Source of the DNA: an uncultured Verrucomicrobiae bacterium
Lineage (GTDB): Bacteria > Verrucomicrobiota > Verrucomicrobiia > Chthoniobacterales > UBA10450
DNA length: 64,000 nucleotides
NCBI GenBank assembly: GCA_963756875.1
Contig: CAVWPA010000001.1
Coordinates: 384,001-448,000, forward strand
Direction: 5' to 3'
Shown here: in pieces, positions 10,957-43,227 of the stretch
How the letters are laid out: each line of letters starts with the position of its first letter
How positions within the stretch are numbered: position 1 is the stretch's first letter
The notes under the pieces: generated by a model
The model's input: only the letters and a program-made list of their open reading frames with translations
Told to the model about the DNA's origin: nothing
The model's database searches: none
Position numbers and translations under genes: made by a program

Positions 10957-11815
10957 TTACTGTCCATGCATCCGCACAGCAAGGGTGACGGAATCGCCCG
11001 AGCTGCAGATGTAGTACCAGCGAAACGTCGCCGGCGCCATACACCGGATAAAAGGTATACGGCTCACCATCGAAAAAGACCGGGTTATTCCAGTCGATCA
11101 TGATGGCCCGGGAAGACGAGTAAGAACTCACGGCGACGGAATCGCTGAAATTAAACGAACGCGAATCGCGAAAGTCGCCCCGGCCATTGTACAACGTGCC
11201 TCCGCTTCCATTGTACGGTGTGTATCGCCAGTTCCGGACGCCATTTGTCGGGTACCAGTCTGCCGTGAAAACCTCCCCTTCGCTTTCAAGAGGAATCGTT
11301 CTGCTCACCACGGTTCTGGTGCCGACATTGTCGATGAAAGCAGGCTGAATGTGATCTTCGCCAGCGAAGCGGTACGAATAGAAGGCGATTTCGTAATCCA
11401 GGCCGCCCCACTGGCTCAAATTAATCGGGTGACCGTACGTGACATCAAAAACACGAACATGGGAATGCCGCCGCGCGATTGTCGGAGCCTCCGTTGAACG
11501 CGTTTTCGCTTCGCGCGCGTTCGCCGCCTCAATTGCGGCGGCTTCTTGCTTTGAAACAGCCAGATTGGAATTGCGGAGCCACTGAATCAACGAGTCGCTG
11601 GCTCCCTGGGATTTCAATATCTTTTCTTGCGGCTGGCTCAAAGTATGGAGAAGCTTGCGTTGTTCGACATCAGTCTTAATTGAGGCTTCGCTTTCGTTTG
11701 CACGAACCAGAAGGGAGATTTCGCTGAAGCCGATCGGGCGTGCTGAAACCAGGGCAACGCCTGCGAACAAGATCGCAGCGGTAATGGATAAACTATAAAC
11801 AGTGGGGAGCTTCAT
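10957..11815 (-). CDS. Hypothetical secreted protein, apparent frameshift near 11020
   Basis: Signal peptide from ATG 11815; removing one G gives a C-terminus VSLYYICSSGDSVTLAVRMHGQ* ending just before the REP. Confidence 0.65.
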
Positions 11816-11917
11816 AATCACCGGTTTTACCATGGTCCTCGTGACTTTTGCAATCCTAAAAGGAGGCTTCTCCGGAGGTTTGGAACTTCGGATTTTGGGG
11901 TTCCCCACTGAACCAGG

Positions 11918-11945
11918 TTGACAGCACGCAAGAGTGCCCTATTGT
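11918..11945 (+). promoter_or_regulatory. sigma70-type promoter for the rplA operon
   Basis: TTGACA-16 nt-TATTGT about 55 nt upstream of the rplA ATG. Confidence 0.65.
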
Positions 11946-11961
11946 GCGCGTCCCGATTACA

Positions 11962-11990
11962 GCAGGAGAGCGAAGGCTCATTTGGACTGC
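11962..11990 (+). promoter_or_regulatory. Putative ribosomal protein L1 mRNA-binding (autoregulatory) site
   Basis: GCAG-GA-GAGC(GAAG)GCTC-ATTTGGA-CTGC: two stems with an asymmetric GA loop just before the rplA start, like known L1 operators. Confidence 0.6.
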
Positions 11991-11998
11991 ATAAAATT

Positions 11999-12700
11999 AT
12001 GGCTCAACATCGCAGCAAACGTTATCGCGCCGCCGTGGAGCAGGTGGACCGATCGAAGACTTACGGCCTGGCCGACGCGGTCACGACATTGAAGAAGTTT
12101 CCGCCGACCAAGTTCGATCAAACCGTGACGATTTCATTTCGGCTTGGCGTCGATCCGAAGCAGTCCGACCAAATGGTGCGCGGGACTTGCGCGCTGCCGC
12201 ACGGAAGCGGCAAACAAGTACGAGTGCTGGTTTTCGCCGAAGGCAAGGCGGCCCAGGAGGCCAAAGATGCCGGAGCGGAATTCGTCGGCTTCAAAGACAT
12301 GATTCAGAAGTGCCAGGAAGGTTTTCAGGATTTTGACGTGGCGGTTGCGACCCCTGCGGCGATGGCTGAAGTCCGCAAACTTGGGAAAGTGCTCGGGCCG
12401 CGCGGATTAATGCCGAACCCGAAAGCGGGAACGGTGACCGACGATACAGCCAAAGCCGTCCGGGAAGTGAAAGCCGGCCGTGTAGAATTCAAGCTGGATA
12501 AAAACGGCAACGTGGCGGTGCCGGTTGGAAAATTTTCGTTCGAAGAAAACGCGCTGGTGGAGAATGGGAACGCGGTGATCGATGCGGTGGTCCGTGCACG
12601 GCCCGCTACCGCGAAGGGACGTTTCCTTGACGCCATGACGTTAAGCGCGACAATGTCGCCCGGTTTGCATCTGGATCCGGCGCCGTATTTGAGTGTCTGA
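11999..12700 (+). CDS. rplA: 50S ribosomal protein L1
   Basis: [28 protein letters not shown]. Confidence 0.98.
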
Positions 12701-35474: not shown

Positions 35475-35572
35475 GGTGGCTCAAAAATCCCGATTTCCCT
35501 CGTATAATCGAGGCTTGGAAACTCAGTTACGCAAATACGCACACAACGATTGGTGGCAGATGACCAGGCAGC

Positions 35573-35764
35573 TTAAAAGGGAATTTCATCATCTTCTTCA
35601 ACCGTTTCCGGGGAAGCGCTTTTGGCGGATTCAGTGGATTCTTCGCAATGTTCGATGGCCGCTTTGTGAAGCTGTTCAAGCTTTGCCCGCTCAACTGACT
35701 CCCCAGCCACTTTGTAGCATCTGGAAATTTCAGAAGGATGTCTCCAGCAATTGTTAATAATCAA
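35573..35764 (-). pseudogene. Gene remnant ending in an SSB-type acidic tail (EEDDEIPF*)
   Basis: C-terminal DDEIPF; no convincing start. Confidence 0.45.
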
Positions 35765-35851
35765 TCCAGCAAAAGATCAGGGCAGTCTTAGGCTATCTTT
35801 GTAAATCTGCCTTGACATAAACGTGGCCCATTTGAAACACTGCTCTCGCGC

Positions 35852-35947
35852 CAAGTCCGTTAGGCGTCTCCAGACAAGGACCTGACCCTCTTTCCGCAGG
35901 GTAATCGCGAACGATAGGCTCGTTCGCCAAGAATCGAAATTAATATG
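35852..35947 (+). promoter_or_regulatory. Conserved upstream module, copy 1
   Basis: Ungapped match to 37556-37651, including 24 identical nt cctgaccctctttccgcagggtaa; ATG 40 nt after GGTAA. Confidence 0.85.
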
Positions 35948-36148
35948 AAAATGACCTCACTCAAAAACACCGCACTCGTTCTTCTCGCCATCGTGGGTGC
36001 ATCTATCGGAATCATTGCCTATACGTTTGCAGATGAACCGTATCCCTTGACTACCCCCTGCACCGTCGGGACAACGACTGTGTATCAAGGGCATACTTGG
36101 AAGTGCGATCAATGTGGCTCGGAAACTTGCTGGATCATGCAGCCCTAG
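35945..36148 (+). CDS. Small secreted 4-Cys peptide
   Basis: Signal-like N-terminus, mature part with C...CDQC...C; followed by a hairpin at 36149-36182. Confidence 0.7.
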   Translation: MKMTSLKNTALVLLAIVGASIGIIAYTFADEPYPLTTPCTVGTTTVYQGHTWKCDQCGSETCWIMQP

Positions 36149-36217
36149 TCAACGCCGGGTGACCTGAGGTCGCGTGCGTTGAGAAGGATTATCTAGCGAG
36201 TAGGAGCAAGGGTCTAG

Positions 36218-36388
36218 GTGAATGATTTGCTTTTCGAAATCGTTGCCCTCACGCTTGGCAGCTTAGCGGCCCGGATACGGCCTGATGAGGTCCCGAGCCA
36301 AGACCAGTCTCCTGCTAGTCAGAAGAGACGCGCATGGGGGTTTTTCCACCCGAAAATAATCTTGCAATCGCCTCTTTGTGCAGGGTAA
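36218..36388 (+). CDS. Possible 56-aa ORF or gene fragment (MNDLLFEIVALTLG...)
   Basis: AGGAG upstream of GTG 36218; its stop is the TAA inside module copy 2. Confidence 0.35.
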   Translation: MNDLLFEIVALTLGSLAARIRPDEVPSQDQSPASQKRRAWGFFHPKIILQSPLCAG

Positions 36389-36431
36389 CTCCGAACGAGT
36401 AGACTTGTTAACCAAGGATCAATTAATAATG
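36371..36431 (+). promoter_or_regulatory. Conserved upstream module, copy 2
   Basis: cctctttgtgcagggtaa + GAACGA..TTGTT..CAAG; ATG 40 nt after GGTAA. Confidence 0.8.
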
Positions 36432-36878
36432 AAAATAATGCCAACAGTATTCACTCTAACCGCTGCGACGAGTTTCTTTACGCTACTCGCACCCATGCAG
36501 GCCCAACAGAAAAAACGCGATTACCAAGACGGCATTGGATTTTTGAAAGGTCGATGGAATGCGAGGGAAATTGTCCATTATCCACTACTAATCTCAGGAG
36601 CCGGAACGTTTGATGGTTCAAATTTTCACGCTGTCATCACAATCAAAAACAAAGTAATCGTGATTAACGTTGTTCAGAACGAAGAGGCTTCGAACAAGAA
36701 TACGTTTTATGGGAAGATCAATGGAAATGATTTAGATTCGATTAAGTGGACATTTCCCGATGGGGCGGCGGCGGAGGTGTATATAACCCCGGATCATGAG
36801 CACGTTCATATTTACATGCCTTTAAGTTATGAAGGGCGCAGAGAACCTCACGCCCAAGAAATTATACTTTCACGGTAA
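36429..36878 (+). CDS. Hypothetical secreted beta-rich protein
   Basis: Signal peptide (MQA-Q), LKGRWN GxW motif. Confidence 0.75.
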   Translation: MKIMPTVFTLTAATSFFTLLAPMQAQQKKRDYQDGIGFLKGRWNAREIVHYPLLISGAGTFDGSNFHAVITIKNKVIVINVVQNEEASNKNTFYGKINGNDLDSIKWTFPDGAAAEVYITPDHEHVHIYMPLSYEGRREPHAQEIILSR

Positions 36879-36968
36879 CACGGCACTCCCCACTGCAAAT
36901 GATGTGAAGGCCGATAACAGTCAAACTCAAACCAGCGCAGGATGGTCTATAATGAGAATAGACCTAAA

Positions 36969-37531
36969 ATGAAACCTTTTGCTCGCGCAATGTCGAAAGG
37001 GCTGCTTTCAATTTTGTGTTTGGTCGCGCTTATTTTGCTGGGCGCATTCGAGGCGCTCGACGCTCAGTCGATTAAAAATTCTGATCATCTCATTGTTCCG
37101 GGCAAGCGCATTGGCTCTGTCACGCTAGGAATGTCTGACCAAGCTTTGTTCAAACTCGGCGTCCCTGACGCGACGGGCGTGGTGGAAGTGGTTAAAAAAA
37201 CCCTAATATATCGTTACGGCGACTTTCTGGTGGTCGATGTCGATCAAGGGACACATAAAGTTGTGAGTATCGTTTTGTACCGTGATAGGTCTTGTACCAT
37301 ACGGCGGAAGGGGTGCGGATTGGCTCCAGTGTGATTGATATTGAAAAGGCGATGGGTCCGCCCGAGCAAGTCATGGCCAATCCCTTCAGAGGTAACGAGA
37401 CGGTGGGCCTGATATATGACTCCGGAAATCTCAAGTGTAGCTTCTTACCTGCGCACGGTCGTTACTCAGATCCTGCGCGAGACACAGTCCAGAGTATAGA
37501 GATGAAGGTGCCGAGCAAGGAAATATTCTAA
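36969..37531 (+). CDS. Hypothetical secreted protein, frameshift near 37290
   Basis: Signal peptide; IVPGKRIGSVTLGMS and YHTAEGVRIGSS halves lie in two adjacent ORFs. Confidence 0.7.
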
Positions 37532-37555
37532 CGTCTTCTAACAAGCGACGCACGG

Positions 37556-37651
37556 CAAGTCCGCAAGGCACCTCCACGGAAGCACCTGACCCTCTTTCCG
37601 CAGGGTAACCGTGAATGAATGGTTTGTTCCAACAAGCGAAAGTTGGTTATG
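37556..37651 (+). promoter_or_regulatory. Conserved upstream module, copy 3
   Basis: Colinear with copy 1; ATG at 37649 is 40 nt after GGTAA. Confidence 0.85.
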
Positions 37652-37758
37652 AAAAATAAATTAAGAGATTGATTAGGGGAATGTTGTGCATCTTAATCTT
37701 GGGGATGTGTCAGACGAAAATCGAAGCCAAATTCGAACCAGATTTCCCAACGAGGTAA
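37649..37758 (+). pseudogene. Signal-peptide-only remnant (MKNKLRD* / MLCILILGMCQTKIEA...*)
   Basis: Starts at the module ATG, frameshifted and truncated. Confidence 0.45.
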
Positions 37759-37772
37759 GATGACAAACACTT

Positions 37773-38180
37773 ATGAAAACTGAAATTGACACGTTCTATC
37801 TGGTATTCCTTTTGCTTATCGGCGGCGTATTCCCCGTGGGAGAGCTTGAAGCGCAATCTCCAACAGACCTTGCCAACATGAAACGCTTGGTTGGAAATTG
37901 GAACACCCAAGCCGATCGACCTCACAATGGGAAAGCCCACACGCTCATCACAATGGATGGACATGATCTTGTGGCGTATTTGGTATGGGATGCAGACAAT
38001 GTCCCGGCCAATGGCTTGAAGGGCGACACGATTTTACTTTACCGCTTTAGATTGCAAGGGCGGCGCATAGTCGGTCGTCGGGTTACTGGCGAGCCTCTAA
38101 CCGGCATCGTCAGTGAGAGCTTTAGACAAATCGATTGGGAGGTATCCAGAGCCAGGCACAACGCCTCAGAGTTATTTTGA
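37773..38180 (+). CDS. Hypothetical secreted protein
   Basis: Signal peptide (LEA-Q), LVGNWN GxW motif. Confidence 0.75.
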   Translation: MKTEIDTFYLVFLLLIGGVFPVGELEAQSPTDLANMKRLVGNWNTQADRPHNGKAHTLITMDGHDLVAYLVWDADNVPANGLKGDTILLYRFRLQGRRIVGRRVTGEPLTGIVSESFRQIDWEVSRARHNASELF

Positions 38181-38475
38181 CCAAACTCTACTCCGAGAAT
38201 AGACGCACCTCCGCCCCGAATTGTCTGAACAGGTAATCATAACCCTCACCTAAACTTCACTCGACGCTTTGCTCGCCCTCTGATGTCCAGTAAAAATTCG
38301 CGAATTTGGCGATTTGCCCAGGTAAATTGCATCGGATGTGAACGATTTTGATACGTAAAAAAATCGCTAAAATCCCAATTTTAAGTCTGTTGCGTCTCAA
38401 ATCACATAGAATGGCGAAAGCAATTGTCATTACGCTAAATATGATCGCTGTCGGTTGTTTTGCAGCTGAGCCGGG

Positions 38476-39189
38476 ATGAACTTCGTGATGAAACTCGGCA
38501 AACTCCATTGGTGGCCCACTTTTCTCTTTGTGGCTTTTCCGGTGATTATCTCCGCCGCGGCTGGGCCAGGCTCGTACCCACCGCCAGGTTTCGAAAAATC
38601 GGAGCAGGATGGCACCGTCGGGTCGCCCGACGGAACTTTGCTGGTTGAACAGTGGTGGAAGCAGGGTGGCGGTGACATGGGACAAAGCCTCTATCAAACG
38701 TGGATCGTCCCAAGAAATGGTAACCCTGTTCGTCTGCCCGAAGTAAAGTTAGGAAAAATAAAACAGATGCAAGCGATCGGCCTTGAAAACCAGGATGATT
38801 CAGGCTCGGTTGGATTTTCCTCTGACTTTCGTTTCTCGCCGGACGCACGATACCTCTTTCGAGAGCAAAAAATCGTGCACGGAGTTAACGGGGCGTACCT
38901 CTATCGACATCAAAGCGGTGCAATGTACGAAGTTCTCGTGGCAGATCTCTTCATTAAGGCGAGTAAGTTTTTTGCGCAGCAAACGCGGCTTAAGTGGGAC
39001 GACGGCACTGGAATCGTTGAATTCTCATCTTGGGAACCCAACGGCGGGTTGGCATTGCAACTTCGGGGCTACACCGCGGACCGGAAGTTCGGTGTCCAAG
39101 GCTGGCGGTGCATTTTTTACCCTACGACAGGCAAATTTGTCATCCCTCAAGCTTGGGCCGCTCAAAACAAAAACGCGATTAATCGGTAA
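38476..39189 (+). CDS. Hypothetical secreted protein with SPDG/FSPD propeller-like motifs
   Basis: Signal peptide; C-terminus paralogous to 41115-41270. Confidence 0.8.
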   Translation: MNFVMKLGKLHWWPTFLFVAFPVIISAAAGPGSYPPPGFEKSEQDGTVGSPDGTLLVEQWWKQGGGDMGQSLYQTWIVPRNGNPVRLPEVKLGKIKQMQAIGLENQDDSGSVGFSSDFRFSPDARYLFREQKIVHGVNGAYLYRHQSGAMYEVLVADLFIKASKFFAQQTRLKWDDGTGIVEFSSWEPNGGLALQLRGYTADRKFGVQGWRCIFYPTTGKFVIPQAWAAQNKNAINR

Positions 39190-39545
39190 GCTCGTTAAGC
39201 GTCACCATGGCACAAGAATGTTTGTGGACGAACGGGTAACAATCGCGAAAAAAGTGCTGCTATGTGGGATTACTGTCCTCCTTCGGTAATCGGTTCCTTG
39301 AAGAGCAATCTGCCGATTACGCGGCCATTTCTCTAGCGCATTCTCTTCACCTCGATCTCAAATGTTCGCCCAATTGCAGTCGGGGCAGCCAATCTGAAGC
39401 AAACGCGCGGTCAACGGGAAGCAGGGTTGCCGGATGAGAACGGATTTGATAGTCTCGGGCCCGGCATCAGGAACGACTCTGAAAGGAGTCTGGCAACCCC
39501 GCGGATAAATTATCGGACTGTTTTTTAACGAAACACTATTGATCT

Positions 39546-39989
39546 ATGAAAAAACTCTTTCTCGACTTCATCTTGGCTCTGATTGTCATTTCCTCCCTTT
39601 TCGCACTTCCGCTAACGGCGTTGATTTTTCAACAAAGCGCAAAACTAGCGGACGAGGTAGCGGCTTGGAATAAGCAATGTGGGGAGAAGCCCTCTTATGA
39701 CGAGGCCTGCATGAAAAGACGTTACAAAATTAGTGGGGAGTTGGGCCAATTTGTTGCGCTCATTAATGACGAGCTAGATGGTCTTCGAGGTATAAGCCCT
39801 GATGCTACTGCTGATTTCGTTAAAGAAGTAGAAGGCCGGCGCAAGATTATGGAACTCGAAGTTCGTAATGCACTCTATGTTATCAAATGCGTCGGCGGTG
39901 TCCCTTCGAGTGGACCTGCCATGTCGGCAAAGCGCAGTTTTAACCGTCAGAGAGTAATACCTGTGCCGACTCCAAGGATAGACGGCTGA
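39546..39989 (+). CDS. Hypothetical membrane-anchored or secreted helical protein (C-terminus possibly frameshifted)
   Basis: N-terminal hydrophobic segment, Cys residues. Confidence 0.65.
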   Translation: MKKLFLDFILALIVISSLFALPLTALIFQQSAKLADEVAAWNKQCGEKPSYDEACMKRRYKISGELGQFVALINDELDGLRGISPDATADFVKEVEGRRKIMELEVRNALYVIKCVGGVPSSGPAMSAKRSFNRQRVIPVPTPRIDG

Positions 39990-40220
39990 AACCTCCGAAT
40001 TCAACAGACATAACTACCGATATTTAAACCGTCGAAGCTGTTACTGGGACCGAACGTAGCGTCGAAGATCTTCGTTCTGTGCACGAGCGTGCGAAAGTTA
40101 CTTCGGAAAATTGTTACAACGTGTGGCGACGTTCGGAATATCCTAAATCTTCATTAGCACTGCTCATTGGCGCCTCGCAGCTCTGGTGTTAGTTTTCTAA
40201 GCCAGCGAGCTAGCTGTGCG

Positions 40221-40679
40221 TTACTGTGCCAGAAATTTCGTCGCTTCCCTCAGCTTTTCTTCAAACCTTGGAAAATCCTTCTTAGCCAGCGGGAAAACGA
40301 CCATTTTCTCTCCCACTATTTGCAACGCCAGATCACCGTCCCGGCCGCTCCAGATTTCGACGAACCCCCCGAGGGTCCCTTTCAATTCACATATTTTGTG
40401 ATCCGGAGCCACCCTCTTGGCCTTTTTCCAACAATCAACGAACTTGGTCCAGTCGTCGCGCAACAAGACCACTTGTTGGAGTTCCTCGCCGGTAACGTCG
40501 ATCTGGATGACAACGAATTTCCGTTGCCCACTTCTCCCAACTGCCAGCGTTAGATAGCGATCCCCGTTTCTAATATCGTACAGCATTCTGGAGCTGTCTT
40601 GGTCAGCTGCCACGGCTGGCTTAGAGAATAACAGGACAAGCGCGCAAACTGGCAGAGACCAACTTAACCTGAACCTCAT
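40221..40679 (-). CDS. Hypothetical secreted protein
   Basis: Signal peptide (AVA-A). Confidence 0.75.
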   Translation of the reverse strand: MRFRLSWSLPVCALVLLFSKPAVAADQDSSRMLYDIRNGDRYLTLAVGRSGQRKFVVIQIDVTGEELQQVVLLRDDWTKFVDCWKKAKRVAPDHKICELKGTLGGFVEIWSGRDGDLALQIVGEKMVVFPLAKKDFPRFEEKLREATKFLAQ

Positions 40680-40688
40680 TGGACGTGC

Positions 40689-40718
40689 AGGTTAGTGCCC
40701 TGCGGGAAGAGAGTCAAG
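40689..40718 (-). promoter_or_regulatory. Partial copy 4 of the module core, also readable as a sigma70 promoter
   Basis: Minus strand cTTGACTctcttcccgcagggcacTAACCT: 17/19 match to tgaccctctttccgcaggg; TTGACT-17-TAACCT. Confidence 0.6.
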
Positions 40719-40733
40719 ATGCTTACGATTAGG

Positions 40734-40760
40734 GTAGTGTCCTAAAAATTAGGACACTAC
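40734..40760. repeat. Perfect 12-bp inverted repeat
   Basis: gtagtgtcctaa-aaa-ttaggacactac. Confidence 0.9.
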
Positions 40761-40800
40761 TACAATTAGAGAATTCCGACGAAGTTAGATCTTTTGCGGC

Positions 40801-41097
40801 TCATGGTTGTGGCTCACTTCGTAACCTTTCATCGTATGCCGCAAGCAGATTTTTCAGATACTTCCGCACCTGCGCGTCACCGACCCTAGCCACCGGCCCC
40901 AGATTCGTTGAAGGCGCCGCCAGCTCCGCGCGGATCTCGCTCATCACGCGTCTGCAGAGTTCGTTACTGTCCGGTTCGGTAGCCAAACGCGCTCCAGCTG
41001 CCCGCGGATCCGCTTCATAGCGGAACCGGCACAGATAGAAAATAGTTCTGATTCGGTCTATTGCTCCTTTGGCATTGCTGACCGATGTCCAATCCAT
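40801..41097 (-). CDS. Hypothetical protein
   Basis: 98-aa ORF, no recognisable motif. Confidence 0.5.
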   Translation of the reverse strand: MDWTSVSNAKGAIDRIRTIFYLCRFRYEADPRAAGARLATEPDSNELCRRVMSEIRAELAAPSTNLGPVARVGDAQVRKYLKNLLAAYDERLRSEPQP

Positions 41098-41114: not shown

Positions 41115-41270
41115 TTACCCGGGAATCGCGCGTTCGTTTTGATTAACCCAGTCTGGCGGAATGGCGAATTTGCCGGTAGCAGGATAAAAGACGCACCGCC
41201 AACTTTCGAGCCCGAATTTCCTATTCGCGGTGTAGCCGCAAAGTTTCACTGCCAATCCTCCATCAGCATT
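41115..41270 (-). pseudogene. 3' fragment paralogous to CDS 38476-39189
   Basis: DGGLAVKLCGYTANRKFGLESWRCVFYPATGKFAIPPDWVNQNERAIPG* vs NGGLALQLRGYTADRKFGVQGWRCIFYPTTGKFVIPQAWAAQNKNAINR*. Confidence 0.85.
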
Positions 41271-41447
41271 GCACGAGCGCCACCTTTGATCCGCGGTTCA
41301 GCCGAGCCGGAAAGTACGGTGCGCAAACTGAGGCTTGTCGTTGCGAGTGCACTGTTGATCTGCTCGACGGCTTAATTAAACACTTTCCCGTATTCGGCTG
41401 GTTTGATAAGCGCGCCCACGGACTGTCGGTACAGCGCGAATCACCCT

Positions 41448-42398
41448 TCAATACCGCACTGGCAAAGGATGAATGGGTGTATCCGGATGGATTTCCGCAA
41501 TAATTCGATCCACCACGCCCAAGCCCTTATCGGGATCAAGCCAATCCCATTCGCCGTTGGTATTGACCTCCAGATAATAGTAAGTTTTGCCATCGTATAG
41601 AAAATCGAGACGTCCGTAATGCAGCTTTAGTTCCTCCATGTATTGACAGATGGCCGCTTCCGTTCCTTCGGGAAGAGGATGCGGTTTCCAAAGCGGTATT
41701 GTCGCAGCCCTTGCTTCTCTCCAATCGATGATTTTGCCCCCAAGGATGTTTCGGTCCAAGGCGAATCCGAATGATTTGCCGCAAATGAATACCACGGTAA
41801 CATCATGGGTTGCATCTACTTTTTCCTGCTTGAACCATGGCAACGTTGAGTCCAGCTTGTTCGCATCAACGGCGGATGTCCAGAAGTAGTGCCCCGGCTT
41901 AACCCGTTCCTCGGATAGACTCTTAACCACGATTGAACCGGAACTTAGTCCCCCTGCCTGCGGCGGGTAGGCAAACTCGTAGCGCGGCACACTGAAGTAT
42001 TTGCAGGCCAGCTCCATTTGAACAAGCTTGCCCAGCCATTCGCCTGAGGCCGGTTCGATGAGGACAAGTTTATTGTCGCGCCGCAGTAGATTCCGAATCT
42101 CTCGGATGGCCTTTTCGACCTCCCGTTCAATATAGATGGTTTCCTGAAGAATGCCAGGTTCCCAATAAAGTTGGGACTTTATAATCGGCTTGCGCCAAAG
42201 ACATTTAGCTACCTCTTCGCGCCGGATGACGCGCCCTCCTAGGTTAGCAATTTCGAAATCTCCCGCTGTGATGAAAATCTGATATTCTTCCCAAATATCG
42301 AGATTAAACCTAAAGATGCGATCCGGGCCGATCCGGTGGATCAAGCGATCTACAGTCAGATCACGCGAATTCGTGATGATGAGTGTCTGCCTATCCAC
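41448..42398 (-). CDS. ATP-grasp peptide maturase (MvdC/MvdD-like)
   Basis: N-terminal LIITNSRDLTVD..RFN..WRKP pre-grasp domain; VVKSL, QEKV, IDWR, YGRLDF, YLEVNTNGEWDWL. Confidence 0.85.
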   Translation of the reverse strand: MDRQTLIITNSRDLTVDRLIHRIGPDRIFRFNLDIWEEYQIFITAGDFEIANLGGRVIRREEVAKCLWRKPIIKSQLYWEPGILQETIYIEREVEKAIREIRNLLRRDNKLVLIEPASGEWLGKLVQMELACKYFSVPRYEFAYPPQAGGLSSGSIVVKSLSEERVKPGHYFWTSAVDANKLDSTLPWFKQEKVDATHDVTVVFICGKSFGFALDRNILGGKIIDWREARAATIPLWKPHPLPEGTEAAICQYMEELKLHYGRLDFLYDGKTYYYLEVNTNGEWDWLDPDKGLGVVDRIIAEIHPDTPIHPLPVRY

Positions 42399-42491: not shown

Positions 42492-42678
42492 TTACGTTCT
42501 CTCGCCGTCGTCACTGTGTGTCGGAAACCGGCGGGACAATCCCGTGCTTAACCACTTGCGGATTGCCGTTGGCGTCTACGAGCTGTTGCAAGGTATGATC
42601 GTAATTTCCTTCCAGGGAAATGGAATCTCTCTGTCGGGCAATCTGGTTGAGGCCTATGGTGCTTTGATTTTGAGACAT
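42492..42678 (-). CDS. Putative graspetide (ATP-grasp RiPP) precursor peptide
   Basis: AAAGGA RBS + ATG 42678; MSQNQSTIGLNQIARQRDSISLEGNYDHTLQQLVDANGNPQVVKHG then IVPPVSDTQ* (stop 42511) or, with one G removed, LSRRFPTHSDDGERT* (stop 42492); directly upstream of the ATP-grasp gene. Confidence 0.75.
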
Positions 42679-43153: not shown

Positions 43154-43227
43154 TGGCTGCCTCGCTAGGACTCGAACCTAGACAAAGAGATCCAGAATCT
43201 CTGGTGCTACCATTACACTACGAGGCA
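43154..43227 (-). tRNA. tRNA-Gln(CTG)
   Basis: Reverse complement folds as a cloverleaf: tgcctcg acceptor arm, AGAGA-TTCTGGA-TCTCT anticodon arm, GGTTCGAGTCC T arm, encoded CCA. Confidence 0.97.

Follow-up and report, generated by a model that had tools for sequence, protein, structure and literature searches.

Short repeats in front of unrelated genes in a 64,000-nt stretch of an uncultured Verrucomicrobiae genome (assembly GCA_963756875.1, contig CAVWPA010000001.1, positions 384,001–448,000; hereafter the window) belong to a leader of ~95 nt used by one family of soil Verrucomicrobia. Judged by their architecture, the repeats are probably copies of a portable, structured 5′ untranslated region (5′ UTR) module that would act post-transcriptionally. 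The leader is conserved in sequence, is distributed across the family, keeps a fixed position between promoter and start codon, and covaries in two of its stems, P2 and P4. In the proposed unit, a sigma-70-type promoter would give rise to a transcript starting at or next to a conserved GCG, the 5′ part of which would form a long imperfect hairpin composed of P1, P2 and a variable apical stem. The 3′ part would present the conserved single-stranded AGGGUAAC, followed by the short covarying P4 hairpin, after which an A/C-rich linker (ACAAC) would lead into the ribosome-binding region and start codon. A first-pass annotation of the window had proposed either an integron-like site that captures or shuffles genes, or a promoter/operator or cis-acting RNA. 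The cis-RNA part of this proposal agrees with a block lying between promoter and start codon and with the covariation of P2 and P4; the block itself is not a promoter.

Conservation and family-wide distribution

The repeat is real. Exact copies of its core, CCTCTTTSYGCAGGGTAA, stand at 35887, 36371 and 37591 of the plus strand, and a search of the window allowing up to three mismatches returned four matches against 0.12 expected, a number reached by 0 of 100 shuffles. As the first-pass annotation had described, the ATG lies 40 nt after GGTAA in all three plus-strand copies (35945, 36429 and 37649), and copies 1 and 3 align without gaps over 96 nt. In this alignment 66/96 positions are identical, with an identical run of 25 nt. 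Its count of three copies holds for copies 1 and 3 as full members, whereas copy 2 comprises only the 3′ half: from the core to five positions past the ATG it is identical to copy 1 at 56/66 positions, with a post-core part that beats 500/500 shuffles, and its upstream 36 nt are unrelated to those of copy 1 (7/36 identical). The partial fourth copy, on the minus strand, does precede the gene ending at 40679, but is only a 14-nt core relic.

The host genome comprises 2.69 Mb on three contigs (56.8% guanine plus cytosine (GC), 87.6% complete), and genome-wide scans revealed no copies beyond those of the window. To avoid circularity, a hidden Markov model (HMM) was built from 104 family members, all from outside the window. 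In genome-wide E-values it placed copy 1 first (E = 2.6e-13) and copy 3 second (E = 9.3e-11), followed by the minus-strand copy 4 at rank 3 (E = 0.11) and copy 2 at rank 5 (E = 0.23). With E-values of this size, copies 2 and 4 are convincing through their position beside full copies alone, to which copy 2 adds its likeness to copy 1. Over the element, copies 1 and 3 are 69% alike, no closer to each other than either is to copies from other genera, and copy 1 has its nearest relative in a metagenome (78%). Copies 1 and 3 are therefore old paralogues, not the products of a recent tandem duplication.

Beyond this genome, a strict 27-nt pattern (core plus the start of the hairpin) matched one genome record and seven metagenome loci, of which six are true homologues: the genome record, titled ‘uncultured Verrucomicrobiae bacterium’, and five of the seven metagenome loci. 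The similarity of these six to copies 1 and 3 extends over ~90 nt and takes in a 5′ block, GCGCYAAGTCCGTTAGGC, which the first-pass annotation did not single out. A loose 17-mer core was uninformative in 60 relatives, matching at the rate of reversed controls (36/61 genomes), and its clustered matches in genome G040 and its match in G002, an unpublished genome on which no conclusion here depends, had no common flanks.

Covariance models gave a clearer distribution. Model R1, built from nine sequences, matched 67/151 genomes of the same family, representing 26/36 genera, with 1–8 matches per genome and 1–3 dispersed copies in most. It matched 0/135 genomes in 15 other families of the order and 0/150 genomes in a sample of the rest of the phylum. 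After 60 further loci had been added, the alignment held 106 matches from 100 sources, and model R2, built from these 106 members, matched 8/15 same-family genomes within the order sample and 1/135 genomes in the 15 other families (E = 7.8e-4). By eye, this single match outside the family looks like a diverged true member. The leader is absent from Rfam 15 as far as the copies are concerned: no family reached gathering level on them, tRNA alone passed in the 64 kb, and a scan of 35750–37750 in E-value mode left the copies without a match, giving only two weak ones at other positions (E = 2.2 and 8.9). A literature search over a limited set of full texts found no description of the element, nor is it described in the passages of PMC5737381, PMC11109978 and the preprint 10.64898/2026.10.21.760802 reached by term look-ups.

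Architecture of the promoter–leader unit

Upstream regions were anchored on the first conserved GCG of each copy. A sigma-70-like promoter (TTGACA-N16-18-nAnAAT), with an A/T-rich stretch before it, lies upstream of this GCG, and the best −35/−10 pair (spacer 16–18) ends 5–9 nt before it in 83/106 copies; by this test, 89 of 2000 60-mers drawn at random from the same loci qualify. This geometry places the predicted start site at or just before the GCG. At the other end, 87/103 copies have the start of an open reading frame (ORF) between −10 and +20 nt relative to the model end. Among the 77 starts that were judged, 60 are ATG, 12 GTG and 5 TTG, and 39 carry a Shine-Dalgarno-like word. With a promoter upstream and an ORF start just downstream, the conserved block is therefore predicted to be a transcribed 5′ UTR. 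The words CTGACC and TAAYCG of the full copies are only 14 nt apart, compared with 16–18 nt for sigma-70 hexamers; read in this way, the core lies mid-leader and is not itself a promoter.

Leader subgroups track promoter subgroups. In the subgroup preceding detoxification genes, the promoter reads TTTACT-N16-GAGAAT and is preceded by a GTNAC-N6-GTNAC palindrome. Since promoter subgroups differ, also in their upstream operator-like sequences, the same leader serves promoters with different inputs. At seven loci (L042, L045, L048, L055, L058, L060 and L131) the palindrome abuts a TTTACT or TTGAC −35, and it is probably a transcription-factor site specific to the detoxification subgroup.

Conserved secondary structure

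RNAalifold, run on 10 sequences, proposed three stems unaided: P1 (GCG..AAG with CUU..CGC), P2 (GUUAGG with CCUGAC) and P4, a 3′ hairpin of the form GYGAACGA/UCGUUCRC. P1 encloses P2, which encloses a variable apical stem, so that the 5′ two-thirds of the leader constitute one long imperfect hairpin with all-pyrimidine internal loops. Pairs were counted on a MAFFT alignment made without structure. P2 pairs in 88.0% of cells with double-sided change at 5/6 pairs, and P4 in 83.4% with double-sided change at 7/8 pairs; at one P4 pair A-U occurs 48 times and G-C 24 times, and at another C-G 69 times and U-A 15 times. P1 pairs in 95.1% of cells with double-sided change at 0/6 pairs. The covariation score of 0.177 compares with 0.136 in shuffles (0/500 reach it) and with at most 0.103 when the partners are slid, and a model-fitted alignment agrees with the MAFFT picture. 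G-U cells exceed A-C cells overall (172 versus 64) and for P2 (100 versus 18), an excess that favours the sense strand.

Conservation extends beyond the stems: more than 30 leader positions, both paired and unpaired ones, do not vary. Between the two halves of the block lie 11 to 46 nt. Of the variable apical stems, 65/104 fold with at least three pairs, at a mean z-score of only −0.47. Two loci, L061:1501–1615 (minus strand) and L092:1301–1424 (plus strand), carry the same 30-nt extra hairpin (GCC..GCGAAGGC) in the apical region, directly after the 5′ strand of P2. A candidate hairpin pairing CCCU with AGGG was also considered; it is 73–78% paired and shuffles reach its score in 15–29 of 500 cases, and we retain it only as a possible alternative fold.

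Genes preceded by the leader

The leader precedes more than 20 unrelated gene types. Pfam assignments of 101 downstream ORFs comprise 11 epoxide hydrolases (EHN plus alpha/beta hydrolase), 8 DJ-1/PfpI proteins (3 of them fused to glyoxalase), 3 glyoxalases, 4 TIR-domain proteins, 2 sulfatases and 2 other alpha/beta hydrolases. Further payloads include Kelch and other beta-propeller proteins, astacin, GDSL lipase, SDR, NmrA-like (NAD_binding_10), adhesin-like and other proteins, and about half of the 101 ORFs have no Pfam family. By a crude test, 40/77 downstream products carry a signal-like N-terminus, compared with 0/60 internal control segments, and many products are cytoplasmic enzymes. These families and counts mean that the gene set is neither paralogous nor confined to secreted proteins, and the secreted-protein set suggested by the first-pass annotation is thus too narrow. 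The two circumstances that the first-pass annotation named as refuting its proposal did not apply either: the payloads are not diverged paralogues, and the motif is not a genome-wide promoter class.

Orthologous loci differ in whether they carry the leader. Orthologues of one DJ-1 gene occur at 21 loci examined; the leader lies immediately upstream at 11 of these and is missing at the other 10. At two loci where the DJ-1 gene is internal to an operon, just the 3′ tail ACAACUGGAG (the end of P4, ACAAC and the Shine-Dalgarno sequence) is retained, which is the same pattern as that of copy 2 behind ORF A in the window. At another locus (L073; G157:C114:1–14000), four leaders occur on one strand within 14 kb, three of them before large TIR proteins (TIR+WD40 and TIR+TPR). 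The arrangement resembles a cluster of defence genes in which each gene has its own leader.

Copies in the window and the low-GC island

Copy 1 (35842..35934, plus strand) is a full leader that scores 97.3 and 94.8 bits with R1 and R2 (E = 1e-17 to 1e-20). Its promoter-like site (35812..35841) consists of TTGACA (35812–35817), an 18-nt spacer and AACACT (35836–35841), which ends 6 nt 5′ of the first conserved GCG. P1 pairs GCG..AAG (35848–35855) with CTT..CGC (35890–35897), P2 pairs GTTAGG (35859–35864) with CCTGAC (35881–35886), and the P4 hairpin, GCGAACGA/TCGTTCGC, occupies 35907–35927; in the covariance-model alignment 20/20 model pairs are standard. ORF A (35945..36148, plus strand) starts 10 nt past the model end and encodes 67 amino acids with a hydrophobic N-terminus and a Cys-rich C-terminus; searches returned no Pfam or NCBIfam family and no homologue for it. 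On these features, copy 1 is the only intact unit in the window.

Copy 2 (36371..36428, plus strand) holds the core (36371–36388), a P4-like hairpin at ~36394–36409 and the linker up to the ATG. The 5′ strands of P1 and P2 are missing from it, as is the family promoter, and the full model gives it only 8.4 bits (E = 0.31 in 7 kb). Behind it lies ORF B (36429..36878, plus strand; 149 amino acids, signal-like N-terminus), which has no Pfam family. A word-indexed search with ORF B returned just its own sequence, and an exhaustive HMMER search returned 17 proteins at E ≤ 0.001, including its own sequence (P0001, 100% identical); the best non-self relative is 51% identical over residues 26–149, and the non-self matches are a few distant domain relatives. 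As we read it, copy 2 is a duplicate of the 3′ half of copy 1 in front of the operon-internal ORF B. It is probably read through from the promoter of copy 1, since 0 terminator-like sites were found in 35500–41000. The ORF that appeared to end at copy 2 (36218–36388) is a mechanical one.

Copy 3 (37546..37638, plus strand) is full-length but degraded (R1 75.3 bits, R2 65.1 bits), with 5/20 model pairs flagged as non-standard. It has no TTGACA-like −35, only TAACAA at the −10 position, and its best promoter-like pair sits off the family position. The ATG at the family-typical start position opens only seven codons (37649..37672, plus strand), probably the remnant of a lost payload. The next ORF of at least 40 amino acids begins 134 nt past the model end; this first real ORF behind copy 3, ORF E (37773..38180, plus strand), encodes 135 amino acids with a signal-like N-terminus, and atlas scores for it are all below 0.9, with DUF2147 at 0.83 as a lead only.

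Copy 4 (40696..40718, minus strand), the core-only relic CTCTTCCCGCAGGG, matches a variant of the family consensus at 14/14 positions and scores 4.8 bits with the full model. Its core sits in the 17-nt spacer of a promoter-like TTGACT...TAACCT, the second hexamer of which ends 9 nt before the ATG at 40679 of ORF H (40221..40679, minus strand; 152 amino acids, signal-like N-terminus). A similar layout is seen at copy 2: in both copies (36362–36394, plus strand; 40685–40724, minus strand) the core lies inside a 17–18-nt spacer between promoter-like hexamers (TTGCAA-N18-TAACTC and TTGACT-N17-TAACCT, respectively), and it may be that promoters arose here from remnants of the leader through small indels.

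All copies lie in a low-GC island at ~35.5–43.5 kb (47–52% versus 57%), which holds ORFs without a Pfam family and ends near a tRNA-Gln gene (43154–43227, minus strand). Copies 3 and 4 are best described as decaying relics inside this island of ORFan genes. No integrase was found in the island or on its contig. That the downstream ORFs are dissimilar, as the first-pass annotation had it, is borne out for the 12 ORFs of the island (best BLASTP E = 0.05). The island ORFs have no Pfam family and, apart from a 51-amino-acid fragment of ORF F, no paralogue in the genome. Leaders in the window have a GC content of 58% and payloads 43–52%; the contrast between payloads and flanks is a local one, as the family-wide mean difference is +0.005, with 33/77 negative.

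Several other features of this neighborhood were recorded. At 41124–41276 (minus strand), a 51-amino-acid stretch is 61% identical to part of ORF F (38476–39189) and looks like a fragment of a second ORF F copy, a sign of local rearrangement. The overlapping ORFs at 36969–37334 and 37292–37531 (plus strand) read as one secreted-protein gene with a frameshift near 37290–37330. A 316-amino-acid ORF at 41448–42398 (minus strand) resembles ATP-grasp ribosomal-peptide maturases (GRASP_SAV_5884, E = 1.8e-21; MvdC, 2.6e-19; both under the curated cut-offs), and a 55-amino-acid ORF (42511–42678, minus strand) lies just upstream on the same strand. Together they may form a graspetide-type pair for a ribosomally synthesized and post-translationally modified peptide inside the island. 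Outside the window, on contig C3, ~82-nt tandem repeats at 11600–12700 with two hairpin-forming palindromes flank a minus-strand ORF, in a layout like that of repetitive extragenic palindromic (REP) elements and their associated tyrosine transposases (RAYT). They lie 3 kb from a tyrosine recombinase match (C3:8216–8734) and share 13/14 nt with the leader core, probably by chance.

Mode of action and alternative explanations

We favour a leader that acts in cis on its own mRNA. The hairpin at the very 5′ end, together with P4 beside the ribosome-binding site, would set mRNA stability and/or translation in the manner of the ompA leader, and the invariant positions would dock a family-specific factor, whether protein, small RNA (sRNA) or ligand. 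Action on the mRNA is suggested because the 5′ hairpin is dropped inside operons, whereas P4 and the ACAAC linker stay with the ribosome-binding site; a specific partner is suggested because more than 30 positions are invariant whether paired or not. Candidate partners were sought in the host genome, at its 87.6% completeness. PF02357 is present in one copy only, leaving no NusG paralogue, and PF02599 (CsrA) has 0 matches. Searches of the genome with the core and its complement gave chance-level matches only; one of them, at C1:632654, lies at the start of a coding region. An anti-Shine-Dalgarno model was likewise rejected: no one place in the leader provides the best partner of the ribosome-binding window, and a leader pairs with its own region no better than with permuted ones. 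A weak trend links C at the fourth position of CCUSAC with GAGGU or GGAGG (7/24 copies, compared with 7/50 for G).

A number of observations weigh against this reading. The stabilising or translational role is deduced from the architecture, and by itself it leaves the strict sequence conservation unexplained. The start at or next to the GCG is predicted from promoter geometry only, and the −10 of copy 1 is weak (3/6 match), hence missed by a generic promoter scan. P1 is complementary yet invariant, so that its pairing is unproven. Folding of single sequences recovers consensus pairs in 48/269 cases for P1a, 58/268 for P1b, 171/528 for P2 and 342/675 for P4, corresponding to 18–51% per helix. 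Compared with shuffles, the window copies show no advantage in folding (copy 1, z = −0.95; copy 3, z = +0.82). L030 does fold better (z = −2.85), adopting the consensus as its minimum-energy structure. The local CCCU/AGGG hairpin, which excludes P1, shows U-A in 40 and G-C in 16–17 cells with 42 cells unpaired, and shuffle tests overstate significance because the sequences are related.

A further reading is conceivable, if doubtful: a new sensory or factor-binding RNA class in which a conserved ~60-nt 5′ domain, by switching between two folds, would convey one post-transcriptional signal to scattered accessory genes, namely detoxification enzymes, TIR-domain defence proteins, adhesins and secreted ORFans, in a family of soil Verrucomicrobia that is abundant and largely uncultured. 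Under such a scheme the leader could be recruited before newly acquired genes, as in the low-GC island. Unlikely in our estimate is a riboswitch-like sensor whose 5′ domain, P1 and P2 with their conserved pyrimidine-rich internal loops, would bind a small molecule or ion and toggle between P1 plus P2 and a 5′ hairpin plus CCCU/AGGG, thereby controlling translation of stress, defence and secretion genes. It would account for the conserved unpaired positions between covarying stems and for the two competing minimum-energy folds (the consensus in L030 and L048, the alternative in copy 1 and L024), and in the alternative hairpin U-A is in some cases replaced by G-C; the L024 fold pairs the Shine-Dalgarno sequence with the 3′ strand of P2, and several payloads (DJ-1, glyoxalase, epoxide hydrolase) serve detoxification. 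Against these stand a heterogeneous gene set of more than 20 Pfam architectures, half of it without a known family, the lack of terminator-like sites in 35500–41000 and of a U-run after P4 in the alignments, the missing covariation of P1 and the missing Rfam match. Nor does the proposed switch fare well as a translational one, since the 3′ strand of P2 pairs with its own ribosome-binding region at a mean duplex energy of −3.22, the same as with permuted regions (149/300 permutations as low), and the Shine-Dalgarno window is on average about 0.5 unpaired.

The remaining alternatives move the signal from RNA to DNA or dispense with it. Control at the DNA level, with the block as an operator or alternative-sigma promoter and only the last hairpin as RNA, would fit the concentration of the strongest conservation (CCTGACCCTCTTYCCGCAGGGTAAC) at the sequence level, the invariance of P1 and the position of the cores of copies 2 and 4 between promoter-like hexamers. 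We hold it to be improbable: a sigma-70-like promoter already lies at a fixed distance upstream of the block in 83/106 copies, CTGACC and TAAYCG of the full copies are too close for −35 and −10, the halves of the block are 11 to 46 nt apart, and P2 covaries and shows the G-U excess noted above. An absence of function in the window, the repeats being leftovers of local duplications in a decaying island, is equally hard to credit. Decay is evident in copy 3, with its non-standard pairs, poor −35 and seven-codon ORF, in the fragmentary copies 2 and 4, and in the frameshifted gene and ORF F fragment nearby; copy 1, however, matches the family perfectly and has both promoter and ORF, genes inside operons elsewhere again show partial 3′ copies, and conservation over 26 genera means that the element is under selection. 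A recombination or cassette system, integron-like or of the type of miniature inverted-repeat transposable elements (MITE) or REP sequences, capturing or shuffling payloads at the core, is very improbable, even though same-strand arrays of the element with short unrelated ORFs occur here and elsewhere (the four leaders in 14 kb at L073), the element contains GTTAGGC, which fits the attC word GTTRRRY, and the window copies lie in a low-GC island next to tRNA-Gln. Tyrosine recombinases (PF00589) have four matches in the 87.6% complete genome, all on contig C3 and none on C1, the contig of the window; most family copies carry their own promoter; and copies of the same genome are only ~69% alike, no closer than those of other genera, which speaks against recent mobility. 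Most genomes hold 1–3 dispersed copies, the GTTRRRY-like and RYYYAAC-like words come in the order opposite to attC, no terminal inverted repeats are seen in the alignments, and payload and flank GC do not differ across the family. Where related loci diverge, homology stops within the leader or past its last hairpin and not at the core, where the capture site of the first-pass annotation would have required a break.

If the cis-acting leader holds, it represents an uncatalogued RNA family with at least 106 aligned examples and covariation in two of three modelled stems, in a bacterial family known almost only from metagenomes. It would show plainly how nature reuses a single promoter-plus-leader module for many unrelated genes, and would open a way into post-transcriptional control in these organisms. 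The RNA would also be a candidate for an orphan sensor or a protein-binding element, and could serve as a ready-made expression part for Verrucomicrobia. It also illustrates that what looks ‘integron-like’ at one locus can be just the exposed part of a leader spread through a whole family.

Relation to known systems

Integron cassettes are promoterless and read from a common promoter, Pc, and their attC sites follow the layout RYYYAAC ... GTTRRRY, with paired R and L boxes 3′ of each ORF. The leader resembles attC as a repeated, imperfectly palindromic element of ~60–100 nt between short unrelated ORFs on one strand, with a GTTRRRY-like word. It differs in having no integrase on its contig, its own promoters (83/106), sequence conserved across genera and mostly solitary copies; moreover, GTTAGGC comes first and CCTGAC/TCTAAC second, the paired strands flank a variable hairpin, and the element keeps its place relative to the start codon downstream. 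The integron reading thus fails on 3/3 defining features tested (integrase, promoterless cassettes and attC layout). Compared with MITE or REP elements, which occur as many near-identical copies with terminal inverted repeats, the leader has two full copies in the genome that are 69% alike, 1–8 copies per family genome, and no terminal repeats seen in the alignments.

Closer parallels are found among structured leaders. The ompA 5′ UTR of Escherichia coli, an mRNA stabiliser, has a stem-loop at the very 5′ end and a second protective element by the ribosome-binding site. The present leader is similar in having a predicted 5′-terminal stem-loop and another element next to the ribosome-binding site, and in being portable between genes; its operon-internal loci keep the 3′ part only, as expected if the 5′ hairpin matters solely at the end of a transcript. 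There is no sequence relation, the ompA leader serves one gene, and a stabiliser alone leaves the invariant nucleotides unexplained. Rfam orphan riboswitch candidates and leader motifs are similar in being ~95 nt long, with covarying stems and conserved junction nucleotides, before a start codon and within a narrow taxon range; the leader departs from them in having no Rfam 15 match, an incoherent gene set, no expression platform found and no covariation in P1.

A further likeness comes from cluster #630,527 (bioRxiv 10.64898/2026.10.21.760802), for which the preprint reports ‘a common 5′ leader’ before glyoxalase, flavin monooxygenase or NmrA-like genes. There, too, one leader precedes different detoxification-type enzymes, and glyoxalase and NmrA-like/NAD_binding_10 payloads recur here, a comparison made by description only, and the two families may overlap. 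The nearest concept is that of putative mobile promoters, homologous non-coding sequences upstream of non-homologous genes in one genome, which are common to several genera (PMC3575422); Nijveen, Matus-Garcia and van Passel (2012) considered some of them to be really RNA elements (PMC3575422). Such promoters are recognised by stretches of 50 nt or more, upstream of genes that are not paralogues, with 80% identity or higher in a frame of −150 to −50 (PMC3575422). Copies 1 and 3 pass this similarity threshold, being identical at 42/50 positions in their best 50-nt window, with unrelated proteins downstream, and this window lies nearer the start codon than that frame. The leader differs from mobile promoters in that its most conserved part is downstream of the promoter, predicted to be transcribed and equipped with covarying stems, and its copies are 69% alike overall, compared with ~92% typically for the pairs in PMC3575422. 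Taken together, the leader is best classed as an uncatalogued RNA family of a known kind, combining features of structured cis-acting leaders with those of reused promoter–leader modules.

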